A DNA stretch of 34,232 nt from an uncultured virus (IMG/VR IMGVR_UViG_3300020048_000069) (lineage: Duplodnaviria; Heunggongvirae; Uroviricota; Caudoviricetes): the IMG/VR virus record IMGVR_UViG_3300020048_000069; one strand, given 5' to 3'. A model generated the notes under the pieces. It did no database searches. It had not been told where the DNA came from and saw nothing but the letters and a program-made list of their open reading frames with translations. Below, piece by piece: positions 5,380 through 34,232 of the stretch (position 1 is the stretch's first letter; the number at the start of each line of letters is the position of its first letter). The translations under genes and the position numbers were made by a program.

Positions 5380-5607
5380 GTATAATTTTGATGCTGTCCA
5401 TAGTATTCGTTTTCGTTTTAAATGCCGTGGCGAGCGTTACAGGCGGTTGTGCCTGTGAATCCGCATTGTAATTGAATCAGAGGACTGGACCATTTTCTAA
5501 GGGATATTGTTTGTGATCAGACCTGACAACTCACTGTTTATAAAAGGTTTTATGGCTTTAGTATTGATAAAATTGCTGAGACGGTCAGAACCAACTTATC
5601 TGAATGC

Positions 5608-5913: not shown

Positions 5914-6978
5914 TTATGAGTTGCCATGAGTTGTTACTGGTTTTTGTACTGTATCCTGTGACGGCATGTTCCCGATAAGTGATACCCTGGCAGCACCAGA
6001 TACATGCTGATAATGTTTCCTCAGCGTTTCAGGAGAACTTCCGACAATCTCGGATAGTGTTTTGTAATCTGCACCAGATTCAATCGCCGTCGTCACAAAG
6101 AAATGCCTCAGATCGTACATCCTCAGCCGGCGAGTTATCCCGGCCTTCTTCTTTGCAATCCTCCACGCTGTAACCAGCCTTAATATTTGCCGACCATTTT
6201 GGTGAATGATGTATCCCGACGGAACCCCGTCTTTTAATTTCCATGCTTCCAGTTCAGATAAAAATTCTGGATGAATCGGAACTTCCCGGCGTTTTGGACC
6301 GCCTTTATCCGCAGATGTAATCTGAATGGTTCGTGTCTCAAATAATACATGATCCCACCGGAGCGAAAAAAGTTCGACTGCCCCAGGTCTTAATCCGGTG
6401 TACCATGCGATTTTGATTGCACGGAATAATCTCTCGTTTGCATGTTTCAGTATTGCATCTGTTTCAGCCAATGTCGGTGGCTGGATAACTGCATCATTCG
6501 ATGGTGGCAACTGGTAATCACGGATATTATTTAATGGTATCATCGGCGGGCGGCGCTTGACTGCCCAACTCATCACGGATTTAATATCCGTCAACTCACG
6601 GCGGATCGTGTTCATTCGGACTGTTTTGTGTCGCTCTCTGATGTACCTGTCAAGATCGTCATACGATAAAGCCATTGCTTTGACTTGCCCTAAAACAGGG
6701 ATGATGATCGAGTAAAATCGTATCTTGCATAGCTTTTCAGAATTGGGATTGAAATTATGGTGGAGGATATAATCACCGACTAAATCATGGAAGAAAGGAC
6801 TTTCGTCATTATCTGCTCTTGGTTTTGTCTTCTTGAAATCCAGTCCATTATCCCTCTCCCTCGCCTTTGATTCTGCGATTGCTCCCCTACCGAAATATTC
6901 CCACCTGAATTTACTCTTTTTCTCAGGATCATAAATCTTGACGATCCACCGGCCATCTTTGAGTTGGTGAACACTCAT
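5914..6978 (-). CDS. int: Tyrosine recombinase (phage integrase)
   Basis: N-terminal arm-binding-like domain; YTGLRPG..EL, YDLRH, HY motifs; adjacent att site. Confidence 0.93.
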   Translation of the reverse strand: MSVHQLKDGRWIVKIYDPEKKSKFRWEYFGRGAIAESKARERDNGLDFKKTKPRADNDESPFFHDLVGDYILHHNFNPNSEKLCKIRFYSIIIPVLGQVKAMALSYDDLDRYIRERHKTVRMNTIRRELTDIKSVMSWAVKRRPPMIPLNNIRDYQLPPSNDAVIQPPTLAETDAILKHANERLFRAIKIAWYTGLRPGAVELFSLRWDHVLFETRTIQITSADKGGPKRREVPIHPEFLSELEAWKLKDGVPSGYIIHQNGRQILRLVTAWRIAKKKAGITRRLRMYDLRHFFVTTAIESGADYKTLSEIVGSSPETLRKHYQHVSGAARVSLIGNMPSQDTVQKPVTTHGNS

Positions 6979-12730: not shown

Positions 12731-13226
12731 TTGTTTTTTCCTTTTCTCTCGATGCTGAAAAGTTTGTTTTTTCGTGATTGGCTATTTGGTTGTGAATTTG
12801 CGATAACGCATATTTACGCATTTCTACCAAAGATTCAGCCCATTGCTTCGGAGTAAAAATAGCAAACCCATCACTTTCTTTAGGATACAAAACCTTGACT
12901 TTAAACCGCATAATATCAAAAACTGTTTTATCTACTGGGTTTCGTTCGTTCGATAATTTGTACAACAAAAGAAGTCCATATATATCTGCTTTCTCTGCGA
13001 GGCGTTGTATGATTCGCGCATGTTTGTATTGTCCATGATCAATCGCTGCCTCTATGATAGCAATAGGTTCTTTAAAATTGTCTTCCCATTCGATAAAACA
13101 TGCTGAATCCAAATCAATCATAGACAGTTTTCCAGCGTCTTTGTAATCAATAAATCGTTTTATAGAATCTCGTCTATGCCAAGCAGAAAATGATAAATCG
13201 CGCGTACCATACATTTCCTTTTGCAT
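12717..13226 (-). CDS. Putative PD-(D/E)XK-like nuclease-fold protein
   Basis: IDLD..IE..PIAIIE; TGATG coupling to the upstream MTase. Confidence 0.45.
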   Translation of the reverse strand: MQKEMYGTRDLSFSAWHRRDSIKRFIDYKDAGKLSMIDLDSACFIEWEDNFKEPIAIIEAAIDHGQYKHARIIQRLAEKADIYGLLLLYKLSNERNPVDKTVFDIMRFKVKVLYPKESDGFAIFTPKQWAESLVEMRKYALSQIHNQIANHEKTNFSASREKEKTNDRT

Positions 13227-14677
13227 CAAATCCTCCAAACGATTATTTCACGAGTGAGGACAAGGCATTTTTTGTTTTCCTTCGCCCAGATAACCATTTG
13301 CGCGTTATTCTGTTGGCTTTCGTAAGGAACAGAATATCTCATTTCGACTGGCAATTTTACCATTTTTAGCATATCACCAACATGATCAGTGTAATCGTGT
13401 GTTTCATTGGTTTTCCATTGGGTAGGCTGGATGATCAGTGCTATATAAGCGTTTTCGGCTCTTGCACGTTTGAGTTTTTCGGCATACATTTTTACAAGAC
13501 TTGACAACTTTTCATTAAAAGTATCCAATTCCATATTTGCCAAATCATCAGCGTCTTGGCTGTATTGGCCTTGCGCCTGCAACCAATACGGCGGATCAAG
13601 ATAAACCAGCTTAACATCCTTCCATGTTGGCGGAGATAGAACGCCATCTTTAATATCGTGTTGACGAATATCCGAACGAATATCAACAGGTTTGCGGTCA
13701 GAAACCAGATAACGGCGCAACCTGGTTTTGCATAAATCAATTGTTGAACCTCCACCACCAAACGGGTCAATCACGATATCAAATGGCTTTGTATAGAGAT
13801 ACAGCAGGTTATCGACAAAGCTGATTTCACTATTCCCAAAGTGATTCACTTGATCACTGCGTTTCTGCTGCTTCCAAATATTGTAAATCGGCGGTTTGAA
13901 ATACTCATCCATGTGGTTTGCCTTAATCAACAACCGTTTGTCGAGTTTGTAAACGCCTAAGCTATTGGAGTCATCTTGTTCATCATCCTCAAACTGCCTG
14001 TTTTCATTGTCTTGAGTGAGTTCTGGATTTTCCGACAAAACCGGATTTTCGGCAACTGTGCCGTTTTCCCCGTTTCGTAGTAAATCGAGAAACTCACGAA
14101 TTACCTTTTCTGAATAACCGATTGCACCCGCTATTTCATCCTGCGAATAACACCCCATCCACATATTAAACGCCGTTTCCCGCAATTCAACTTTCAAATC
14201 CTTATCAATGCGGCTGGTAGTTTCCCTGATATACCGTTCAGATCGGCTATAATCTTTAGCCATATCTTTCTTGAGTTCAGCCCTGCCTTTCTGGTCAAGG
14301 CTTTCCATTTTTGCTCGATACTCATCGCGTATCAACTTTTTGAGTTCCTTTTCGGTTTGCGGTTGACCATGCCGGAAATTGGAACGTGCCGATTTGCGCT
14401 TAATAGCGTGAACATCTAACTTGCCATCAAATATAAATCCGCTGGTATCCAGATATTCCACATCAATCGTTTTAAGACCGCATTCCTTATGCGCCATCCA
14501 ACGATGCCATCCGTCTAAAAGAATATTGTCTTGATTCAACAGAATTGGCGGGAATTCTCCACCTGCAATAGACATTGCGTATTCTTGTACTTTGGCCGGG
14601 CTTTGTGACTCAGTACGGGTATAAAAATCTTTGTTAAAAACAACTTCGCTGACTATGATAGAAATAACTTCGCTCAT
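13226..14677 (-). CDS. ParB-like N-domain + DNA amino-methyltransferase
   Basis: FPPI..LLDGWHR (ParB); DPFGGGGST (motif I) followed by DPPYW (motif IV). Confidence 0.85.
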   Translation of the reverse strand: MSEVISIIVSEVVFNKDFYTRTESQSPAKVQEYAMSIAGGEFPPILLNQDNILLDGWHRWMAHKECGLKTIDVEYLDTSGFIFDGKLDVHAIKRKSARSNFRHGQPQTEKELKKLIRDEYRAKMESLDQKGRAELKKDMAKDYSRSERYIRETTSRIDKDLKVELRETAFNMWMGCYSQDEIAGAIGYSEKVIREFLDLLRNGENGTVAENPVLSENPELTQDNENRQFEDDEQDDSNSLGVYKLDKRLLIKANHMDEYFKPPIYNIWKQQKRSDQVNHFGNSEISFVDNLLYLYTKPFDIVIDPFGGGGSTIDLCKTRLRRYLVSDRKPVDIRSDIRQHDIKDGVLSPPTWKDVKLVYLDPPYWLQAQGQYSQDADDLANMELDTFNEKLSSLVKMYAEKLKRARAENAYIALIIQPTQWKTNETHDYTDHVGDMLKMVKLPVEMRYSVPYESQQNNAQMVIWAKENKKCLVLTREIIVWRI

Positions 14678-20646: not shown

Positions 20647-21129
20647 TTATTTCCCTCCATTTACGATCTTTAGACCATCCGGACGATTCATTGGGGAAGA
20701 ACCCGGCACGTTCATGGATTGTAATGATTTGTCTTTTTTTACATCTTCAATTTCTTTTCGTATCAGTTCACCGAACGATCTTAATCTTTCGTACTGTGCT
20801 CCAGTGCCGCATTCTGTGACATATTCAGCAATACCCATAAGCGAAGTAATAGCATGAATACTTGGCTGCTGTTGGCTCCCATGATTAATGATAACTGGTT
20901 GCGATGTTGAACTTGTATCCATCATAAATAAATCATGATAACTTTTCCCCAAAACGCGCAAGATGTCACTCAAAGATTTCTGAGTAAAATTTCTTTTACC
21001 ATTTTCAAGATTCGTTATTAATGATTGGCTGACACCACTTTTTTCAGAAAGTTCGATCTGTGTCAAACCAGCAATTTCCCTGAATTGCTTCAATCTTACG
21101 CACCAATAATCTGGCGTTGTATCATCCAT
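20647..21129 (-). CDS. CI-like XRE HTH repressor (no S24 peptidase domain seen)
   Basis: RLKQFREIAGLTQIELSEKSGVSQSLITNLENGKR; divergent from cro. Confidence 0.85.
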   Translation of the reverse strand: MDDTTPDYWCVRLKQFREIAGLTQIELSEKSGVSQSLITNLENGKRNFTQKSLSDILRVLGKSYHDLFMMDTSSTSQPVIINHGSQQQPSIHAITSLMGIAEYVTECGTGAQYERLRSFGELIRKEIEDVKKDKSLQSMNVPGSSPMNRPDGLKIVNGGK

Positions 21130-21876: not shown

Positions 21877-23157
21877 ATGTTTGATACTAAATATCAATTT
21901 TTCGATGATCTCAGCGTTGATGAATATCAATCGCTGAAATCATCAATTGAAACACACGGCGTTCTGGTGCCGGTTGAATACGATGATGCCGGTAATGTGC
22001 TGGATGGACACCACCGCTTGAAGGCTTGCGCTGAACTCGGTGTCACAATCTGGGGACGCATGATCCGACCAGGATTATCCGAGGCAGAAAAAAAGAACCA
22101 TGTTCGGATTTTGAATATCGCCAGGCGGCAGCTTACCAAAGATCAAAGGGTTAAACTTTGGGAAGAAATGCGTGCCGACGGCATGACGCTGGCGGCCATT
22201 GCTGCGGCGGACGGTACGGTAAGCATCAACACGGTGAAGAGTGCAATTGATAATTCAACTTTGCAAAATTGCAAAGTTGACATCCCAACCAAAACCATCG
22301 GCAAAGACGGCAAAGCCAGGAAGACGAAGTACTCCAAAACCCCAAAATTCAAACATACCTATATCCACGAAAACGAACTTGAAAAAATCCTTGCACTGCC
22401 AGAAGAACAACAGACGGCAGTTCTTACAGGTGAAAAAACACTTCCTGAAATTAAATCAGATGTGAAAAAAGAACAAATCCAGCAGCGAAAAGAAGCAATC
22501 GAAACAACACTTAAATTCGAAATCAAGAATATCCCAAAAGTACAATGCACAAATGCAATTGATTTTCTATCCGACATTAAAGACAATAGCATTGATTTAT
22601 TAATCACAGATCCTCCGTACTCCACAGACGTTGATGATATTTTAGCGTTTGCTCAGTCATGGCTTCCGGCAGCATTGAATAAAGTCAAGGATACTGGGTT
22701 CGCCTTTGTATTTATTGGCGCATATCCAGAGGAAGTTAAGGCATATCTGAATATCGAAACCCCTACTCAAATGCTCGTTTGGGAGTATAAAAACACTCTC
22801 GGCCAGAATCCAAAAGAAAGATATAAACTCAATTACCAGGCAATTCTATTCTATCGCATGAAGAATTCTGGAGACCTGAATATTGATTTGACATCTGAAC
22901 AGTGGGCCGTACAAAGCATTAACGCACCCGACGGCAGGCTTGGGGATCGTTATCACGAATGGCAAAAACCAATTGAATTGGCAGAACGACTAATCAGACA
23001 CACAACAAATGAGGGTGCATCTGTAATTGATCCGTTTTGTTGTACCGGCACGTTTCTTTTAGCTGCTGCAAAACTTAATCGAAACGCCAATGGTTGCGAT
23101 ATATCGAAAGAAAATCTTGAAATAGCAGTTAAAAGAGGATGTGTTTATGCCGGATAA
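21877..23157 (+). CDS. ParB-like N-domain + beta-class N6/N4 DNA methyltransferase
   Basis: VLDGHHRLKA, N..RR.L; IDLLITDPPY, H..QKP..L, DPFCCTGT. Confidence 0.88.
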   Translation: MFDTKYQFFDDLSVDEYQSLKSSIETHGVLVPVEYDDAGNVLDGHHRLKACAELGVTIWGRMIRPGLSEAEKKNHVRILNIARRQLTKDQRVKLWEEMRADGMTLAAIAAADGTVSINTVKSAIDNSTLQNCKVDIPTKTIGKDGKARKTKYSKTPKFKHTYIHENELEKILALPEEQQTAVLTGEKTLPEIKSDVKKEQIQQRKEAIETTLKFEIKNIPKVQCTNAIDFLSDIKDNSIDLLITDPPYSTDVDDILAFAQSWLPAALNKVKDTGFAFVFIGAYPEEVKAYLNIETPTQMLVWEYKNTLGQNPKERYKLNYQAILFYRMKNSGDLNIDLTSEQWAVQSINAPDGRLGDRYHEWQKPIELAERLIRHTTNEGASVIDPFCCTGTFLLAAAKLNRNANGCDISKENLEIAVKRGCVYAG

Positions 23158-23775: not shown

Positions 23776-23976
23776 ATGCCAAAAATCCATAAGAAAAATA
23801 TCCACGCAAAGATTTGCCCAAAATGTGGTGAATTCGTTTCACCGCAGATAACAGACAGAATCAACGAAATGCACGGCCATTATCTGACTTGCCCTGCGTG
23901 TAAACAGTTTATGGGATGGGGTGGTAAGATCGACAAATCGTTCGCTGATGCAAGATATCCTGAGCAGGCAAAATGA
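23776..23976 (+). CDS. Small Zn-ribbon protein
   Basis: CPKC..CPAC..FMGW; ATGA overlap with primase. Confidence 0.6.
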   Translation: MPKIHKKNIHAKICPKCGEFVSPQITDRINEMHGHYLTCPACKQFMGWGGKIDKSFADARYPEQAK

Positions 23977-26111
23977 TAATGCCAGAGCCTATTCAACCTT
24001 CATCCAGTCCCATTAATAACGCGTGTATGGACGCAGCTCTTGAATATCTGGATATGGGTTTCTCTGTTATGCCTGTTAATCGGTTTGGCAAAAAACCATA
24101 TTTGCACGAGTGGAAACCATACCAGACGCAACTCCCAACTGTGGATGAGATTGAAGCTTGGTGGACCCGATGGCCGGAAGCAAACGTGGCAATCATAACA
24201 GGTAACCTGTCTGGTCTTTTTGTTGTTGATGCTGATGGCCCCATTGGTATCAAATACATGACAGATAACTTGCCAAAAACCACAGTATATTCAAACACTG
24301 GTAAAGGCGTTCATGCGTTTTTTAGGATGCCAGAACATTCGATTTTAAGAAATCGCGTGAAAATCTCTACTGAGGTGGACGTGCGAGGGGAAGGCGGATA
24401 TGTTGTAGCAGCACCTTCTATCCATGAAAACGGAAATCATTATACATGGGTGTTTAACCTGGGTGGATGGGATGATTTACCTACATACCAACCGCCTACT
24501 GCATCAATAAATAAAACATCAGGAAATATTAATCTTGATCTTTCAGGCGTTAAAACATCCCCAGTCAATCAACCTGTTGCCAAAGGATCTCGAAATCACA
24601 CATTAACACAACTGGCTGGCAAGTGGATAAATGCAGGACTTGATGAAGCAGAAATTGAAATTCTTGCTAAATCCTGGAATAATGGCAACAATCCACCACT
24701 ATCGCTTAAAGAATTATCCACAACACTCGAATCAGTCAAAAAAACTCATACCCGGAATCATCCTGCTGTTGATGTAACGTCATTAGAAATTGATTTCCAG
24801 CCATTTAAAGAAAAAAGTGTTTTCCCCGAAAAGCTCTTATCGCCTGGCGGCATGATGCAGGATGTCATGGAATGGATAACATCATCAAGCGCAGTTAGTA
24901 TCCCTGAATTCAACCTTGCCGGTGCAATTGCTATGATAGGTACTCTGGCCGGGCATCGTTTTCAAACCGAAACCAAACTCAAAACGAATTTCTATGTTAT
25001 TGCCCTCGGACATGCAGGATCCGGAAAGGACGCACCGCAGGAAGCAATACCAGCAGCATTGTTACAATCAACAGAAATGAACTGCATTGGGCCGCAATCC
25101 TTACCCAGCGACGCTGCACTGCTCAAATACGTTGCGAATCAAACCAAGGCCCGTACTCTGATTTTTTTAGACGAAATTGGTTTGATGCTGAAATCCATCA
25201 AACGCCCCAATTCTGCGGGATATGAAATTCAGTCAACACTGATGAAATTATTCTCAAGTGTTAATCGAAAACATGTAAAACCGTATGCGTCCGGTGATGA
25301 TCTTGTTGTCCATTGGCACCACATCAGCTTTTACGGTGCCAGCACACCGTCCCATTTCTGGCAATCATTCACACGATCTGACGCAACAGACGGATTTCTC
25401 GCTCGTATCTTAATTTTTGAATCACATCAGAATCGGGTAATATCCAGACGTGATATTAATTTCGATGTCCCTAAAAACCTAATCGAATCCATTAATGAGT
25501 TTTCAAAGTTTGGTCCACCACCTGAATCAGAAATTGATAAAAATCTCATTCGCATACCGATTGCAATCACTATCCCAAAATCACACAAAGCTGAAAAATA
25601 TTTTCTTGATTGGGAACAGTCCATTATTGATAAACAAAATATCATTCAAGAAAAAGACGAAGGCATTGCTGCCATCTATGGCAGAGCGCCCGAACACGCG
25701 CATAAACTTGGATTGAATCACGCCATATCATTACAAGGTACAAAGCTAAAATTTGTTGAAATTGAATCAGTAGAATGGGCCATTGATATGATGGACTACC
25801 AGACCGAGCATATTATCAATCAGATCAGAGACAATATCAGTGAGAATGACTGGCATCAACATCAGCAAAGAATACTCAAAGCTATTCGGCGGTATTCAAC
25901 ATCAGAAAAACCTGGCGCCAGTATCCGGGATATTTACAGATCAGGTGTTAAGGTTCCTGAAAAAGTCCTTATTGATCTGCTGCATAGCCTCCAGTCCTCC
26001 GGTGAAATATTAAAACAATCCCATAAGCCAAATAGAGGTAGAGCCGTTGATATTTATGCAATTGCAAGAGAATGTGTCAATGACACAATTGACACATTAA
26101 TGACACATTAA
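23973..26111 (+). CDS. Bifunctional primase-polymerase + PriCT + DUF3987-like ATPase/helicase
   Basis: NVAIITG..VVDAD, G.HAFF, DVRGEGGYVVAAPS; GSRN..L; GHAGSGKD, IFLDEIG, DGFLAR. Confidence 0.9.
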   Translation: MIMPEPIQPSSSPINNACMDAALEYLDMGFSVMPVNRFGKKPYLHEWKPYQTQLPTVDEIEAWWTRWPEANVAIITGNLSGLFVVDADGPIGIKYMTDNLPKTTVYSNTGKGVHAFFRMPEHSILRNRVKISTEVDVRGEGGYVVAAPSIHENGNHYTWVFNLGGWDDLPTYQPPTASINKTSGNINLDLSGVKTSPVNQPVAKGSRNHTLTQLAGKWINAGLDEAEIEILAKSWNNGNNPPLSLKELSTTLESVKKTHTRNHPAVDVTSLEIDFQPFKEKSVFPEKLLSPGGMMQDVMEWITSSSAVSIPEFNLAGAIAMIGTLAGHRFQTETKLKTNFYVIALGHAGSGKDAPQEAIPAALLQSTEMNCIGPQSLPSDAALLKYVANQTKARTLIFLDEIGLMLKSIKRPNSAGYEIQSTLMKLFSSVNRKHVKPYASGDDLVVHWHHISFYGASTPSHFWQSFTRSDATDGFLARILIFESHQNRVISRRDINFDVPKNLIESINEFSKFGPPPESEIDKNLIRIPIAITIPKSHKAEKYFLDWEQSIIDKQNIIQEKDEGIAAIYGRAPEHAHKLGLNHAISLQGTKLKFVEIESVEWAIDMMDYQTEHIINQIRDNISENDWHQHQQRILKAIRRYSTSEKPGASIRDIYRSGVKVPEKVLIDLLHSLQSSGEILKQSHKPNRGRAVDIYAIARECVNDTIDTLMTH

Positions 26112-26340
26112 TTTAAAAAATATTAAATAAAAACAAGTACATAAAATAATGTGTCAATGTGCAACGGCATAGTGGCAAAAACCTATAAGGCAAATGCACA
26201 TTACAGTTTTACACCATATACCATCGCGCATTGACACATTATTTTTTTTTTTTATATTTATATAATATAATTAGATATTCTTAAAATATAATGTGTCATT
26301 AATGTGTCATTTTCATTACTGACACATTGACACATTAATT
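26071..26340. repeat. Putative replication origin: 10 TGACACA iterons in an AT-rich imperfect palindrome
   Basis: TGACACA at 26081, 26090, 26101, 26232, 26320, 26328; TGTGTCA at 26073, 26150, 26292, 26303. Confidence 0.75.
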
Positions 26341-26916: not shown

Positions 26917-27777
26917 ATGACTGATTCTGTTTTAACACCAAAACTTTCAGATTGTCAATTTCAAAAATTCATCCAGGCAGGATTGTTCTCATGTGATGCT
27001 GACGTTGTTCTTTTGACGAGAAAAGAGAAGCAAGCGGCTTATAAAAAAGCATGGAGTAAAGATAACCCTGAAAAAAAGAAAGCATCAGCGAAAGCATACC
27101 AAAAAGCTAATCCAGAAAAAAGGAAAGCATATCGTGCTGCACATCCAGGCAAATCAATAGCAACGAATAAAACATGGCGTGCTGCAAATTTTGAAAAAGT
27201 GAACGCAACAAATAAAGCATGGCTTATTGCGAATCCTGAAAAAGTGAAAGCACGAGTGAAAAAAAACAACTCTGCAAGTGTTCGATATGATGTTTACAGA
27301 GATAGATTGCAAAATTACGAAAATATACTTCAAGACTCAGATGGTATTCTATTGGTTGGTTGCGTGTACTGCGGTAAACAGTTTACCCCTACGAAAATAC
27401 AGGTAGATAATAGAATAAGTGCAATCAATGGAACGCAAGTAGGTGAAAATCGTTTCTATTGCAGCCAGCTTTGTAAGATCGCTTGTCCAATATATCGGCA
27501 ACAAATACGCTATAAATTTCAGCAAGTCGGCCATACCCGTGAGGTTCCTGCTGAGTTCAGACAGATGGTATTACTTAATAGAAACTATACTTGCGAAAAC
27601 TGTGATTCAGATGAAACTGGCCTACATGTTCATCATATCAACGGCTATACCGAATCACCTATGACAATGGCTGACTTATCGAACGTAAAAGTCTTATGTG
27701 CGAACTGTCACAAAGCAGTCCACTCTATACCAGGCTGTTATTTCGTAGATTATTCATGTAAGAACCAAAAACAATAA
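26917..27777 (+). CDS. HNH endonuclease with ANPEK-type repeats and Zn fingers
   Basis: CENC..LHVHHI..N...LCANCH..H; GGAG SD; upstream TTGACA (26804) and hairpin 26852-26881. Confidence 0.8.
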   Translation: MTDSVLTPKLSDCQFQKFIQAGLFSCDADVVLLTRKEKQAAYKKAWSKDNPEKKKASAKAYQKANPEKRKAYRAAHPGKSIATNKTWRAANFEKVNATNKAWLIANPEKVKARVKKNNSASVRYDVYRDRLQNYENILQDSDGILLVGCVYCGKQFTPTKIQVDNRISAINGTQVGENRFYCSQLCKIACPIYRQQIRYKFQQVGHTREVPAEFRQMVLLNRNYTCENCDSDETGLHVHHINGYTESPMTMADLSNVKVLCANCHKAVHSIPGCYFVDYSCKNQKQ

Positions 27778-28044
27778 AGATAGTAAAGGTCACTGGTGTC
27801 TGACAAAATTCTTTCTTGGCTCACGAAACGTAAAGCATGAGCTACAAACCACTTTGTATCTATTTTATTGTCCACAAGGAGTGTCATTCATGTTTAATTT
27901 CATTTGCCTATGGTGTCTTACGCTGAAATTCTATTGCCAAGGCGACACGCTCCCAGATGCCTACGAGGCGGCGGTTTTGACTTCATCGGGGTTCAGGAGA
28001 GTGATTCTTTCAAAGAAACTTAAAAGACAGCCGTGGAGGTTGAA

Positions 28045-29058
28045 ATGATTTATAAATGTCCAGACACAATTGAAGAATTTGATAAACAGTTAGAACAGCT
28101 TCAATTCTGTAAAAAAGAACTTTACAACCAAGCAAAGTCCAGAATTGAATCCGGTGTCGCAAAGAGTGTCAGCGAAGCGTCAAGGCAGTTGGCGGAAGAA
28201 ACTGGAAGAAGTGCGGCGACGATCAGAGACGCAATAATCAGAGAAGATAAAAATAAAGGTGTGGGACTTCCACACCTCTCAGGAACTAATAAATATCAAC
28301 CAGTTACACCAAACTTGAATAATCTTGAATTATCACACGGTGGCGCTCGCATTGGTGCAGGCAGACCATCTGTATCATCAGAAAAATTAACACAAGAAAA
28401 AGTTGAAGAAGTTTTTGAAAGCCAGCCTTCTTTATTCGAAATCGAAGAAATCCAATTGTCAATCATACCAGAACCAGAGATTGAAATAGCAGTCGATTTA
28501 ATCGACGAACACCCGGAAGCCGCTACGGCAATTATTATCAAACATAACCACCGAGCAATCGGCACCGGCGAAAACGAATGGTACACGCCAATCGAATACA
28601 TCCAAGCCGTTAAAAAAGTTTTCAGCGAAATTGATCTTGATCCTGCATCCAGTGAACAAGCGCAAGAAACTGTTATGGCTAAATCATTTTTTACAATCAA
28701 TGATAATGGACTCTCAAAAACATGGAACGGCAAAATATTTCTTAATCCACCGTACACACAACCTGACATTAAGAATTTCATACAAAAAGCAGTTGATGAA
28801 TATTCATCCGGCAATATTCAGGAAGCAATCATTTTAACTCACAATTATACCGATACGAGTTGGTTTCATTCTGCTGCTTCTAAATGTTCTGCAATTTGTT
28901 TCACTCGGGGGAGAATTGGCTTTTTAAGTCCAGAAGGTAAGAAAGCCGCTCCAACTCAAGGCCAAGCATTTTTTTACTTCGGAGATACACCAGATAAATT
29001 CGTAAATGTTTTTGCTGATTATGGACAAATATTCACACCTAAAACTCCAGGATATTAA
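28045..29058 (+). CDS. Phage N6-adenine DNA methyltransferase (phage Dam-like family) with N-terminal extension
   Basis: NEWYTP, DLDPAS, GL...W.G.IFLNPPY, GRI.F; GGAGG SD; HGGARIGAGRP motif. Confidence 0.88.
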   Translation: MIYKCPDTIEEFDKQLEQLQFCKKELYNQAKSRIESGVAKSVSEASRQLAEETGRSAATIRDAIIREDKNKGVGLPHLSGTNKYQPVTPNLNNLELSHGGARIGAGRPSVSSEKLTQEKVEEVFESQPSLFEIEEIQLSIIPEPEIEIAVDLIDEHPEAATAIIIKHNHRAIGTGENEWYTPIEYIQAVKKVFSEIDLDPASSEQAQETVMAKSFFTINDNGLSKTWNGKIFLNPPYTQPDIKNFIQKAVDEYSSGNIQEAIILTHNYTDTSWFHSAASKCSAICFTRGRIGFLSPEGKKAAPTQGQAFFYFGDTPDKFVNVFADYGQIFTPKTPGY

Positions 29059-31223: not shown

Positions 31224-31382
31224 ATGACAAAATTTGAAGAGTGGCTCGAAAATGAAAAAGAATTTGTGCTGAAAACTGAGAGAGAAAGACAACTAGCCAA
31301 GGCAAGCTGGGACGCGGCTTTGACTATGATTTACAATCTAATTGACACGGTAACCATAAAGAAAGGAATGGAAAATGAATAA
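31224..31382 (+). CDS. Hypothetical protein
   Basis: FEEW..A...WDAA; overlaps the HU start. Confidence 0.45.
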   Translation: MTKFEEWLENEKEFVLKTERERQLAKASWDAALTMIYNLIDTVTIKKGMENE

Positions 31383-31635
31383 AACAGAATTGATAACAAC
31401 GATTGCTGAAAAGACGAAAGTCACTAAATCCATCGTATCAGATGTTGTTGAAATAATGTTCTCTACGTTGATCGAACAAGATAGAGTTTCTATCAAAGAG
31501 TTTGGAGTTTTTAACTGGAAAACCAGGCCGGCAAGGAAAGGCCGGAATCCTCACACAGGCTCAACAATTGATATACCAGAAACAAAAACCCTAACTTTCA
31601 AGGCTGCATCTGGACTGAAAACCTATGCAGACTGA
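31375..31635 (+). CDS. hup: HU-family histone-like DNA-binding protein
   Basis: MNKTELI..IAEK..FGVF..R.ARKGRNP.TG..I.IP..FK. Confidence 0.92.
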   Translation: MNKTELITTIAEKTKVTKSIVSDVVEIMFSTLIEQDRVSIKEFGVFNWKTRPARKGRNPHTGSTIDIPETKTLTFKAASGLKTYAD

Positions 31636-32725: not shown

Positions 32726-32941
32726 CGCCAATGGACGTGCGGATCACCCAAGACATTCACTATACGCATAACAGGCAGTCGGAGCCTATTTTCGTTATGA
32801 CATTTAACAGGGGACGAGTTTCAATTCATCGTCCATGGATTGCACTATCCCGGAGTTGATTGCAATCAAAAATGCAATAGATTGTTTTCTCTATGAACAA
32901 GATAAAAATTAAACCAGTATCCTCAAAGGAGGGTGTAACAA

Positions 32942-33943
32942 ATGCAACAAATTAAAGCCAATGACGATGTAATCAACAACCTGAATTTCTCTCTCAAAAC
33001 CTATGACGCAATTACTAAAACTGTTGTCATGACGAAAAACCGGCTGGCACACATGAATTCCGAAGAGAAACCAGGAAACAATCAGTTTATAAAGAACATG
33101 GAATCTCTTCAAGGACAATTGACGCGAGCGACCTTGCGCGAATTGGAGTACTGGCCTATCTGGACAGAATGGCTCAAAGGTGTTCCTGGTATCGGGCCGG
33201 GGATCGCCGGGAATCTGATCCTGCTTTATTACTACCGATTCATCGCTGTCTGTAAGGATTGCGGTTCAGATGTTATCAAGAAAGAATCTGAACCCAAAAA
33301 GAATAAAAATGGCAAAGCTCCGGTAATAAAGCTGGATGAGAACGGCGAAGAGAAAAAAGTCATGACGTTTTTCTGTCCAACTTGCAACAAGAGCATCAAA
33401 GGCGAAGGTGTTCTGAAACATCGAATTGATAAAACCACAAAGGATTTCTCGAACGTTTCCAAGTGGTGGGCTTATCTTGGCCAATCTGTGGTTGATGGCA
33501 AAATGCCGAAGAGACAGACCGGGGTAGTTTCAAACTGGTCTGCGAAAGGCAGGCAAACAGCGTATATGATCGGCATTTCGTTTGAACACCAGAAGGATAC
33601 CAGTGGCAACCCATATCGAGAATTTTATGATGCGACAAAAAAGAAGTTACAGGCCGTATATCCAGAAAAAACCGACGGCCATAGACGGGATATGTCGAAG
33701 ATGCGAACAGCTAAGTTCTTTCTGTCTCATTTCTGGCATGTGGCGCGGGAGCTGGAAGATAAAAGCACACGAGGCATTTATAGCGATGTGATTCTGGCGC
33801 ATACCGGCATTATCCCGCCGTATTACTGGAAGAATGATGTACATGTGCCTGTTATTGAAGAGGAAGCGCCGGTAGTTGAAACGAAGAGACGGATAGCTGC
33901 TGCGAAGAAAGCGGCTAAGTTGTTGGCTGCAAGCAAGGTTTAG
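32942..33943 (+). CDS. Tas-like (TasA-type) IS110/Nop-related RNA-binding protein, no nuclease domain, Zn-ribbon insertion
   Basis: AAGGAGG SD; coiled coil, WLKGVPGIGP HhH, F.NVSKWWAYLG..DG..PKR..G..NW, YR.FYD..K, GH...R..K.FL.H.W; directly followed by the dual-repeat array. Confidence 0.8.
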   Translation: MQQIKANDDVINNLNFSLKTYDAITKTVVMTKNRLAHMNSEEKPGNNQFIKNMESLQGQLTRATLRELEYWPIWTEWLKGVPGIGPGIAGNLILLYYYRFIAVCKDCGSDVIKKESEPKKNKNGKAPVIKLDENGEEKKVMTFFCPTCNKSIKGEGVLKHRIDKTTKDFSNVSKWWAYLGQSVVDGKMPKRQTGVVSNWSAKGRQTAYMIGISFEHQKDTSGNPYREFYDATKKKLQAVYPEKTDGHRRDMSKMRTAKFFLSHFWHVARELEDKSTRGIYSDVILAHTGIIPPYYWKNDVHVPVIEEEAPVVETKRRIAAAKKAAKLLAASKV

Positions 33944-33980
33944 TAGGATAGCAAGAGTTTGTTCTTTGAAAATTGATAAG

Positions 33981-34232
33981 TGCAAGACCGATATAATAAT
34001 GAAACCCACGCAGCATGTGCAAGACCATGAATGAATTGAAACCCAGTGAACCAATGCAAGACCACTTTGATTTTGAAATCCAGTGGGGAAATGCAAGACC
34101 AGAACCTCAATGAAACCCACATCGGCTATGCAAGACCACTCTTCTTCTGAAACCCATTTGTCCTGTGCAAGACCATCGCAAGTTTGAAACCCATTGATAT
34201 TGTGCAAGACCATGATTGCATTGAAACCCACG
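33981..34232 (+). repeat. TIGR-like dual-repeat guide-RNA array, 37-bp unit TGCAAGACCA-N9-TGAAACCCA-N9, at least 7 units, truncated by the window end
   Basis: 10-mer at 33981, 34018, 34055, 34092, 34129, 34166, 34203; 9-mer at 34000, 34037, 34074, 34111, 34148, 34185, 34222; 13 complete spacers, all different and all exactly 9 nt. Confidence 0.92.

Follow-up and report, generated by a model that had tools for sequence, protein, structure and literature searches.

What system is encoded at the right-hand end of an uncultured viral genome, where a 333-residue gene is followed closely by an array of very short repeats? The DNA in question is IMG/VR record IMGVR_UViG_3300020048_000069 (Caudoviricetes), 34,232 nucleotides (nt) long and referred to here, over its full length, as the window. 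An initial annotation made from the letters alone had proposed an RNA-guided system of the TIGR-Tas type, made up of a Nop-like protein without a nuclease and an array of paired spacers. Our analysis supports this proposal. The locus is very probably a dual-repeat TIGR-TasA system on a temperate-type phage. This kind of system is already known: TIGR-Tas was published in 2025 and a TasA was described as a guide-dependent repressor in 2026. The field is therefore young, and it concerns compact RNA-guided DNA binders that need no protospacer-adjacent motif (PAM) and have uses as tools. The locus is a further, well-supported case of a phage TasA, with an array close to the canonical form, and it was recognised from raw sequence.

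The array is built from two motifs, located by motif search of the window. The edge repeat is TGCAAGACCA (10 nt, 7 copies) and the loop repeat is TGAAACCCA (9 nt, 7 copies, one of them as TGAAATCCA). Searched as TGCAAGACC[AG], the edge motif starts at 33981, 34018, 34055, 34092, 34129, 34166 and 34203 and is unique to the array within the window. The loop motif, TGAAA[CT]CCA, starts at 34000, 34037, 34074, 34111, 34148, 34185 and 34222, and elsewhere in the window only at 6834 and 25189. The period is exactly 37 nt (edge motif at 33981 + 37k and loop motif at 34000 + 37k, k = 0–6). Thirteen complete spacers separate the repeats, each of 9 nt and no two alike, and the window end cuts the array 2 nt into the fourteenth. 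All 14 repeats start with TG and 13 of them end with CCA, the first edge repeat ending with CCG. Two alternating motifs in such exact periodicity exclude chance. The strict 37-bp array of two alternating repeats with unique 9-nt spacers, each flanked by CCA (once CCG) on the 5′ side and TG on the 3′ side, thus stands as it was first read. Tandem Repeats Finder reported only the 3′ part of it (34129–34230, period 37).

This anatomy is that of a dual-repeat TIGR array. In the available text of Faure et al. 2025 (PMC12045711), such arrays are defined by two alternating repeats of 8–12 nt (edge and loop), 9-nt spacers and an A-rich loop repeat, and both repeats begin with UG (box D) and finish with CCA (box C). 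The window array has all of these elements, with CCG in place of CCA in 1 of 14 repeats. The TaTasR and ParTasR arrays printed in Table S1 of the same paper have exactly the loop repeat of the window, which therefore matches one whose processing has been seen in experiments. The edge repeat of those two arrays, TGCGAGCCA, is similar to that of the window, which keeps C3 and G6, taken as an extra edge pair. One added A before box C in the window edge repeat makes the unit 37 instead of 36 nt.

The gene, tasA, ends with a TAG stop codon at 33941–33943 and the first repeat begins after a 37-nt leader. No terminator-like site was found between gene and array, so that the ORF (open reading frame), the gap and the terminator search agree with the initial annotation. 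The leader 17-mer TTTGTTCTTTGAAAATT (33958–33974) is shared by L005, the locus of the closest relative (protein 62% identical), where it likewise stands 6 nt before the first edge repeat. A promoter-like TTGATA-16-AATAAT at 33973–34000 was not above chance (4 found versus 3.3 expected).

A coding function for the array was considered and rejected. A minus-strand ORF of 194 residues (33647–34231) crosses the array and runs antisense into tasA. It is regarded as an artefact, because 37 is not a multiple of 3, the repeats are stop-free on that strand and the ORF overlaps tasA in antisense. Across the arrays of relatives, the longest open frames lie in different frames from one relative to another. 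An Rfam scan over 33800–34232 gave nothing near the gathering score (best E = 0.34) and no small nucleolar RNA (snoRNA) match. An exact 65-nt stretch from the array end had no match in the viral, genome or metagenome contig collections.

The protein beside the array was compared with known sequences and structures. By sequence (phmmer), the best match in the PDB is TaTasR (9mty_A, a 331-residue chain, E = 8.3e-29), followed by TasH chains at E = 2e-5. Residues 19–95 align with TaTasR 115–192 and residues 169–297 with TaTasR 199–322. The alignment starts at TaTasR 115, and the RuvC nuclease of TaTasR (1 to about 110) has no counterpart in the query. An AlphaFold2 model built with 65 homologues (predicted local distance difference test (pLDDT) 89.4, predicted template modelling score 0.84) opens directly with two long helices, residues 8–38 and 48–68, with no domain before the coiled coil. 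The ten best Foldseek matches to this model are all TasR or TasH chains, from E = 7e-11 (9mty) to 5e-6, the TasH complexes lying at 3e-8 to 5e-6. IS110-family recombinases ISCro4 and IS621 come next, at E = 3e-3 to 9e-3. No Nop5 chain was among the 11 matches at E ≤ 0.001. A Pfam scan gave nothing above cut-offs and no nuclease domain. The GIGP helix-hairpin-helix aligns with TaTasR and scored E = 0.08 against Pfam HHH, below cut-off.

Sequence and predicted fold together make the 333-residue protein a nuclease-free member of the Tas family with a Nop fold, a type that Faure et al. 2025 call TasA. The Nop-like fold, the coiled coil, the helix-hairpin-helix and the IS110-related C-terminal part had all been proposed from the letters, and each was recovered. 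Neither a DEDD RuvC domain nor an HNH domain appeared in Pfam, in the TaTasR alignment or in the model, which makes the protein TasA-type, as had been suggested.

We also asked whether residues for guide processing are present. In SpTasH, Y289 and H296 are the catalytic residues of metal-independent pre-tigRNA processing (PMC13421893, as far as its available text goes), and a C-terminal Y/H dyad marks dual-repeat systems according to the available part of Xu 2026. Both residues align without gaps to Y280 and H287 of TasA, which are at least 90% conserved in the 65 aligned homologues. Y280/H287 is thus a putative processing dyad.

TasA is also predicted to form a homodimer through its coiled coil, as TIGR-Tas proteins do through a central or N-terminal one. 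The two-copy model reached an ipSAE (interaction prediction score from aligned errors) of 0.44, against 0.01 for the best of 3 controls, with at least 80% contact agreement between runs and a partner pLDDT of at least 73. The predicted interface is symmetric and involves residues 9–60 and 158–160. Of proteins with solved structures, 20 of 30 that are pairs of one chain and 1 of 23 that are single chains pass the mark used for homodimers; since Tas dimers are already solved, the pass may only reflect likeness to them. The limits of the TaTasR segments used for comparison (coiled coil 115–168, wedge G210–K230) come from the methods section of Xu 2026. A C-terminal extension, residues 300–333, carries a basic amphipathic helix at 313–331 (KRRIAAAKKAAKLLAASKV) after a low-confidence linker in the model. 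It is missing in most homologues, and a similar basic tail is found in L005.

A word-indexed search returned 160 homologues, mostly of 250–390 residues and unannotated. The identical protein is encoded on a contig of 96,232 nt, which is 62,000 nt longer than the window, and the window is presumably the last piece of it. An exhaustive search found 770 representative clusters at E ≤ 1e-3, 199 at E ≤ 1e-10 and 62 at E ≤ 1e-30. Pfam assigned a nuclease domain to 0 of the 13 longest relatives. No longer fused forms of TasA were found among the relatives, which is weak evidence. In the GenBank phages (50,697 records) there were only 3 weak partial matches, the best with 30.7% identity over 51% of the query. 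We examined 15 related loci, 4 viral and 11 from genomes. The latter are mostly Desulfobacterota metagenome-assembled genomes (MAGs), plus one Methanoperedens, one Saccharibacteria, one Anaerolineales and one unclassified archaeal MAG. A dual-repeat array with a period of 36 or 37 nt lies within about 1.5 kb of the tas gene in 15 of 15. The association of gene and array is thus conserved, as the initial annotation had required of homologues.

The closest relative, L005, has both repeats as in the window, a 37-nt period and at least 28 units. Units of 37 nt occur in the window, L005 and L011. The L005 array also contains three 9-nt edge repeats (TGCAATCCA, TGCAAGCCG and TGCAAACCA, at 5387, 5497 and 6015) with 36-nt spacing, and both unit lengths thus coexist in one array. 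That edge repeats of 9 and 10 nt are tolerated side by side is relevant to the way in which the Y/H dyad gauges where to cut. In L005, spacer B TTGATTGAA is present three times, with different spacer A partners. No spacers are common to the window and L005 or L001.

Two further relatives deserve description. L004 (41% identity, on a viral contig of 97,020 nt) has an array at 5920–6300 with the divergent motifs TATAAATCA and TTAAAATCA, in which TCA replaces the CCA-type box C in both repeats. Such a joint change agrees with what has been published, namely that edge and loop repeats covary in these motifs. In L003 (G005:C1:21551-22420), on a viral contig, the tas gene was matched as two pieces with one in-frame TGA. 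Repeat units lie upstream of the gene, directly at its 3′ end and, after about 140 nt more, a further time.

Strain variation was followed in sequencing runs. Some of the stretch is contained in 17 DNA runs; 6 of these, from two studies, contain at least 39% of the sampled words, and 4 of the 6 were compared. In two runs of the first study, possibly the window's own source study, the gene is identical and one contig differs at a single array position. The contigs of this study run beyond 34232, and one adds 94 nt after 34214 with a further repeat unit. A first-study contig joins unit 6 to a different preceding unit, which reflects either population heterogeneity or a repeat of the unit deeper in the array.

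Two runs of the second study contain a 98%-identical tasA, with 18 differences in 1,048 nt. Fifteen of the 18 are synonymous and the other three conservative (G45A, N52D, V140I), which indicates that tasA is under purifying selection. The second-study contig is collinear with the window through the first edge repeat (to 33989). Beyond this point the loop repeat is unchanged, and the spacers A and B on either side of it are not those of the window. Pieces that lie further along match window units 4–5 with few differences, at other spacings. Array content therefore varies between near-identical strains while tasA is conserved. Such different leader-proximal spacers in near-identical phages of two studies bear on spacer acquisition.

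The same observation bears on whether the repeats might act as DNA, as iteron- or centromere-like binding sites of the neighbouring protein for replication, partition or packaging. They are short and regularly spaced, stand at the end of a replication gene cluster and coincide with the breaks in assembly. Their box D/box C anatomy is nonetheless that of processed tigRNAs, down to a loop repeat identical to that of TaTasR, and the neighbouring protein has an RNA-binding Nop fold with a conserved RNA-processing dyad. Variable 9-mers that differ between 98%-identical strains are expected of guides rather than of spacing DNA. We give this DNA-site explanation hardly any credence.

The TIGR-TasA assignment leaves one part of the protein to be accounted for. 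Residues 96–168 form an insertion of 73 residues in place of 6 in TaTasR (193–198). It sits between TaTasR 192 and 199, just upstream of the wedge, and is modelled as beta strands with block-mean pLDDT of 82–95. C104, C107, C145 and C148 are invariant in 65 of 65 aligned homologues and suggest a zinc-ribbon-like module. A regular expression detects the Cys4 motif after a GxG turn in 114 of 120 close homologues, in 36 of 44 full-length representatives of the next ranks and in only 2 of 70 full-length distant Tas representatives. The Cys4-bearing clusters number about 60 at 50% identity and come mostly from phage or prophage contigs and Desulfobacterota MAGs.

The insertion is absent from all five of the studied Tas sequences that Faure 2025 prints in its Table S1. 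The main texts of Faure 2025, Xu 2026 and Guan 2026 do not mention zinc, ribbon or CXXC, and "cysteine" appears in them once only, in a reference title of Faure 2025. Judged by title and abstract, the papers listed for TIGR-Tas with zinc, 13 of 14, were reviews or unrelated. Neither the TasA protein nor six clade motifs were among the 9,182 rows of Table S1 of Faure 2025, where a control peptide was found; the rest of the catalogue may list the clade. Dual-repeat Tas proteins have been described as having a compact, little-varying Nop core, to which the Cys4 clade is a modest exception. It is possible, although we hold it doubtful, that the Cys4 ribbon before the wedge, the 37-nt guides and the array turnover between strains with 98%-identical tasA together mark a distinct TasA subfamily undescribed in print. 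If so, the zinc ribbon could serve, in place of the absent nuclease domain, as an additional contact to nucleic acid or to a partner, and the strain pairs could offer natural material for studying how TIGR arrays acquire spacers. None of the three unusual details, namely the 37-nt unit, the Cys4 insertion and the spacer differences, alters what the system is.

These patterns of conservation also speak to the state of the locus. PHROGs places residues 170–292 in phrog_4285, named "transposase" (5e-17). The 9mty entry, named "TIGR-TasR in complex with tigRNA and target DNA" in the fold search, carries its depositors' label of IS110 C-terminal domain. Both names would suit a fragment of an IS110-type transposase with chance repeats, or a decaying and inactive relic. 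Such a fragment or relic is nevertheless extremely improbable. The DEDD/RuvC domain is absent, the ORF is intact and strain differences are mostly synonymous. The four cysteines are invariant and the Y/H dyad is conserved across the aligned homologues. The repeat periodicity is perfect, and all examined relatives share the architecture.

How might an intact TIGR-TasA system work? Drawing on published work on other Tas proteins, we infer a sequence of transcription, processing, dimer-RNA assembly, DNA binding and repression. Transcripts of the array would probably arise with those of tasA in the rightward early operon, or else at a leader promoter. TasA would dimerise via its N-terminal coiled coil, and the Nop domain of each protomer would hold one repeat via UG (box D) and CCA (box C). 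The Y280/H287 dyad may then cut the precursor inside the edge repeats, giving tigRNAs of about 37 nt in which spacer A, the loop repeat and spacer B, in this order, lie between two half edge repeats. Each such pair of 9-nt spacers would then base-pair with opposite strands of an 18-bp DNA site. The complex is expected to bind and bend DNA without cutting it, as TasA is without a nuclease domain. Most likely it would serve as a repressor or roadblock that can be programmed against DNA of the host, of competitor elements or of phage.

A target other than DNA is conceivable on structural grounds. The Nop fold and the box C/D-like motifs recall box C/D small nucleolar ribonucleoproteins (snoRNPs), and the initial annotation had left RNA binding open, so that the complex might target RNA or guide RNA modification. 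In the available text of PMC12045711, however, TasR is inactive when given RNA, and Tas complexes base-pair with the two strands of DNA. TasA also lacks a fibrillarin-binding N-terminal domain, and there is no adjacent methyltransferase, the nearest lying 5 kb away and being a DNA methylase by PHROGs. We consider an RNA target very unlikely.

Several observations weigh against a TIGR-TasA repressor with this processing and targeting, beginning with the guide itself. Dual-repeat guides are uniformly 36 nt in the available text of Xu 2026, and the unit of the window is 37 nt. As Faure 2025 allows repeats of 8–12 nt, we count this as a variant and not as an exclusion. Of the seven TasH processing residues in the aligned stretch, four are kept (R278, R286, Y289 and H296) and three are not (H268, E292 and K293). 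Repressor function is known from the stem-loop-type MbTasA, not from a dual-repeat TasA of the window's clade.

The target searches weigh in the same direction. [quoted passage not shown] The other opposite-strand geometry was tested too, with gaps of 0–2. Table S3 of Faure 2025, in its available form, lacks the TaTasR tigRNA1 spacers and did not confirm the geometry. For the 6 spacer pairs, the best self-matches in the window have 3 of 18 mismatches, no better than chance level (2 matches, with a chance estimate of about 0.8). Own spacers did no better than foreign spacers or decoy geometries in two viral contigs, G001 (48,298 nt) and G002 (97,020 nt), and in the L005 contig (37,616 nt), which is from a MAG. 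Exact 18-mer scans of viral contigs with pairs 2–6 gave 1, 4, 8, 0 and 8 loci, versus 3 for a same-strand decoy. Several of these loci are one sequence sampled repeatedly, and none resembles the window.

The scan of relatives covered 57 spacer pairs in 4 sequences and 4 geometries, 2 of them decoys. It returned two 1-mismatch matches. One is an own match (G3, geometry rcA.B), and the other belongs to a decoy and lies in a foreign genome. About 0.24 in total are expected in random sequence by estimate, and more in AT-rich DNA. According to the available part of Xu 2026, short spacers make scans such as the exact 18-mer ones uninformative, and TIGR targets are not known in general.

These scans bear on the idea that the system regulates the phage's own genome, and not host or competitor DNA. 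What it controls could be the timing of lysis and lysogeny, replication or integration; it might, for instance, assist the integrase by bending DNA under RNA guidance. Such an aid to the integrase is raised in the available text of Faure 2025. The position of tasA is suggestive here: it closes the rightward early/replication operon, the element is of temperate type and has genes for an integrase and a CI-like repressor, and an HU/IHF-type DNA-bending protein is encoded 1.3 kb upstream. Yet the visible 34 kb holds no self-match under 3 of 18 mismatches, and own spacers stay at the foreign and decoy level in the three contigs. We regard regulation of the phage's own genome as unlikely.

The locus and the rest of the window are set out in Table 1. 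PHROGs annotation of its 41 ORFs points to a temperate-type phage, and the system is phage-encoded, as was first stated. A rightward operon starting near 21877 ends with tasA and the array. Further PHROGs names are a helicase, a Sak4-like annealing protein, a Cas4-domain exonuclease, a Holliday-junction resolvase, an endolysin and a tail-fibre-like protein. The available text of Faure 2025 describes an operonic "TasParB" at some TasA loci. The ParB-like/methylase fusion of the window lies 10 kb from tasA and so is not this protein. Iterated motifs occur between the primase and resolvase genes (26079–26336). They are AATGACACATT (3.3 copies, 26079–26112), its reverse complement TAATGTGTCAT (2.1 copies, 26289–26311) and TGACACAT (2.1 copies, 26320–26336), and they could be a replication origin or an operator.

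Table 1. Features of the TIGR-TasA locus and its surroundings, in window coordinates.
Feature	Position	Strand	Basis or remark
tasA, 333-aa TIGR-associated Nop-domain protein without nuclease domain	32942..33943	+	ORF, PDB phmmer, AlphaFold2, Foldseek
Shine-Dalgarno-like AAGGAGG, 9 nt upstream of tasA ATG	32926..32932	+	read from sequence
Coiled-coil dimerisation helices (predicted), residues 8-68	32963..33145	+	model helices; alignment to TaTasR coiled coil
Clade-specific insertion, residues 96-168, Cys4 zinc-ribbon-like module	33227..33445	+	TaTasR alignment, model
Y280 ... H287, putative metal-independent pre-tigRNA processing dyad	33779..33802	+	ungapped alignment to TasH Y289/H296
C-terminal extension, residues 300-333	33839-33940		model
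Leader, 37 nt, tasA stop codon to first repeat	33944..33980	+	
Dual-repeat TIGR array	33981..34232	+	7 edge repeats, 7 loop repeats, 6 complete spacer A/B pairs and a 7th spacer A
Integrase	5914-6978	-	PHROGs
Methyltransferase-like gene	13226-14677	-	
CI-like regulator	20647-21129	-	PHROGs
ParB-like N-terminal domain fused to N6/N4 DNA methylase	21877-23157	+	
Primase	23973-26111		PHROGs
45-nt tandem repeat, 2.1 copies	27159-27252		multiple of 3; inside HNH-endonuclease-like gene 26917-27777
Methyltransferase-like gene	28033-29058	+	
HU/IHF-type DNA-bending protein	31375-31635	+	PF00216 1.8e-23, phrog_379; same operon as tasA

How does the locus compare with systems already described? A CRISPR array likewise stands beside its effector gene as a succession of repeats and spacers, with spacer content that varies between strains. 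The window has two alternating repeats of 9–10 nt and 9-nt spacers that would work in pairs on opposite strands, with no PAM known, in place of a single repeat of about 25–36 nt or longer with cas genes nearby. The only Cas-like name that PHROGs gave among the 41 window proteins is the Cas4-domain exonuclease, 22 kb away. A box C/D snoRNP would have a fibrillarin-binding N-terminal domain and K-turn guide RNAs bound by L7Ae; in TasA no domain precedes the coiled coil, and Rfam recognises no snoRNA. IS110 recombinases (IS621, 8wt6; ISCro4, 9t56) share the fold of their C-terminal domain, which binds RNA, with TasA. Unlike them, the window has no DEDD RuvC-like catalytic domain and no bridge RNA, carries a guide array instead of a single two-loop RNA and is not a transposon.

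Closer likeness is found among Tas nucleases. SpTasH of Salicola phage CGphi29 (9w03, 9w04, 21kl) is also a phage-borne dual-repeat system, and its processing loop aligns with that of TasA. It differs in an N-terminal HNH nuclease, 8-nt spacers and other repeats, and overall similarity is weak. TaTasR, a RuvC-bearing Tas nuclease from a Thermoproteota archaeon, can be aligned with TasA over the coiled coil, the helix-hairpin-helix and the wedge region. As TasA is without the RuvC part, no cleavage is expected of it.

The nearest counterparts are the TIGR-TasA systems themselves. By 2026, 20,096 tas loci and 6,685 arrays had been catalogued. FpTasA of Flavonifractor plautii is a TIGR-TasA of Faure et al. 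2025, whose available text reports that TasA binds 36-nt tigRNAs; its likeness to the window protein is one of description. MbTasA represses transcription in a guide-dependent manner (preprint 10.64898/2026.09.09.750476), the kind of function that the initial annotation had suggested for the window. It and PlTasA, both from 2026 preprints, use stem-loop guides, whereas the window has dual repeats. The window further differs from TIGR-TasA systems in its 37-nt unit with a 10-nt edge repeat, against 36 nt, its Cys4 insertion of about 73 residues and its basic C-terminal helix. It shares with them a solo, phage-borne Nop-domain protein that has its coiled coil at the N terminus and lacks a nuclease, a neighbouring array in which edge and loop repeats alternate and spacers measure 9 nt, and an expected activity of RNA-guided DNA binding and repression.

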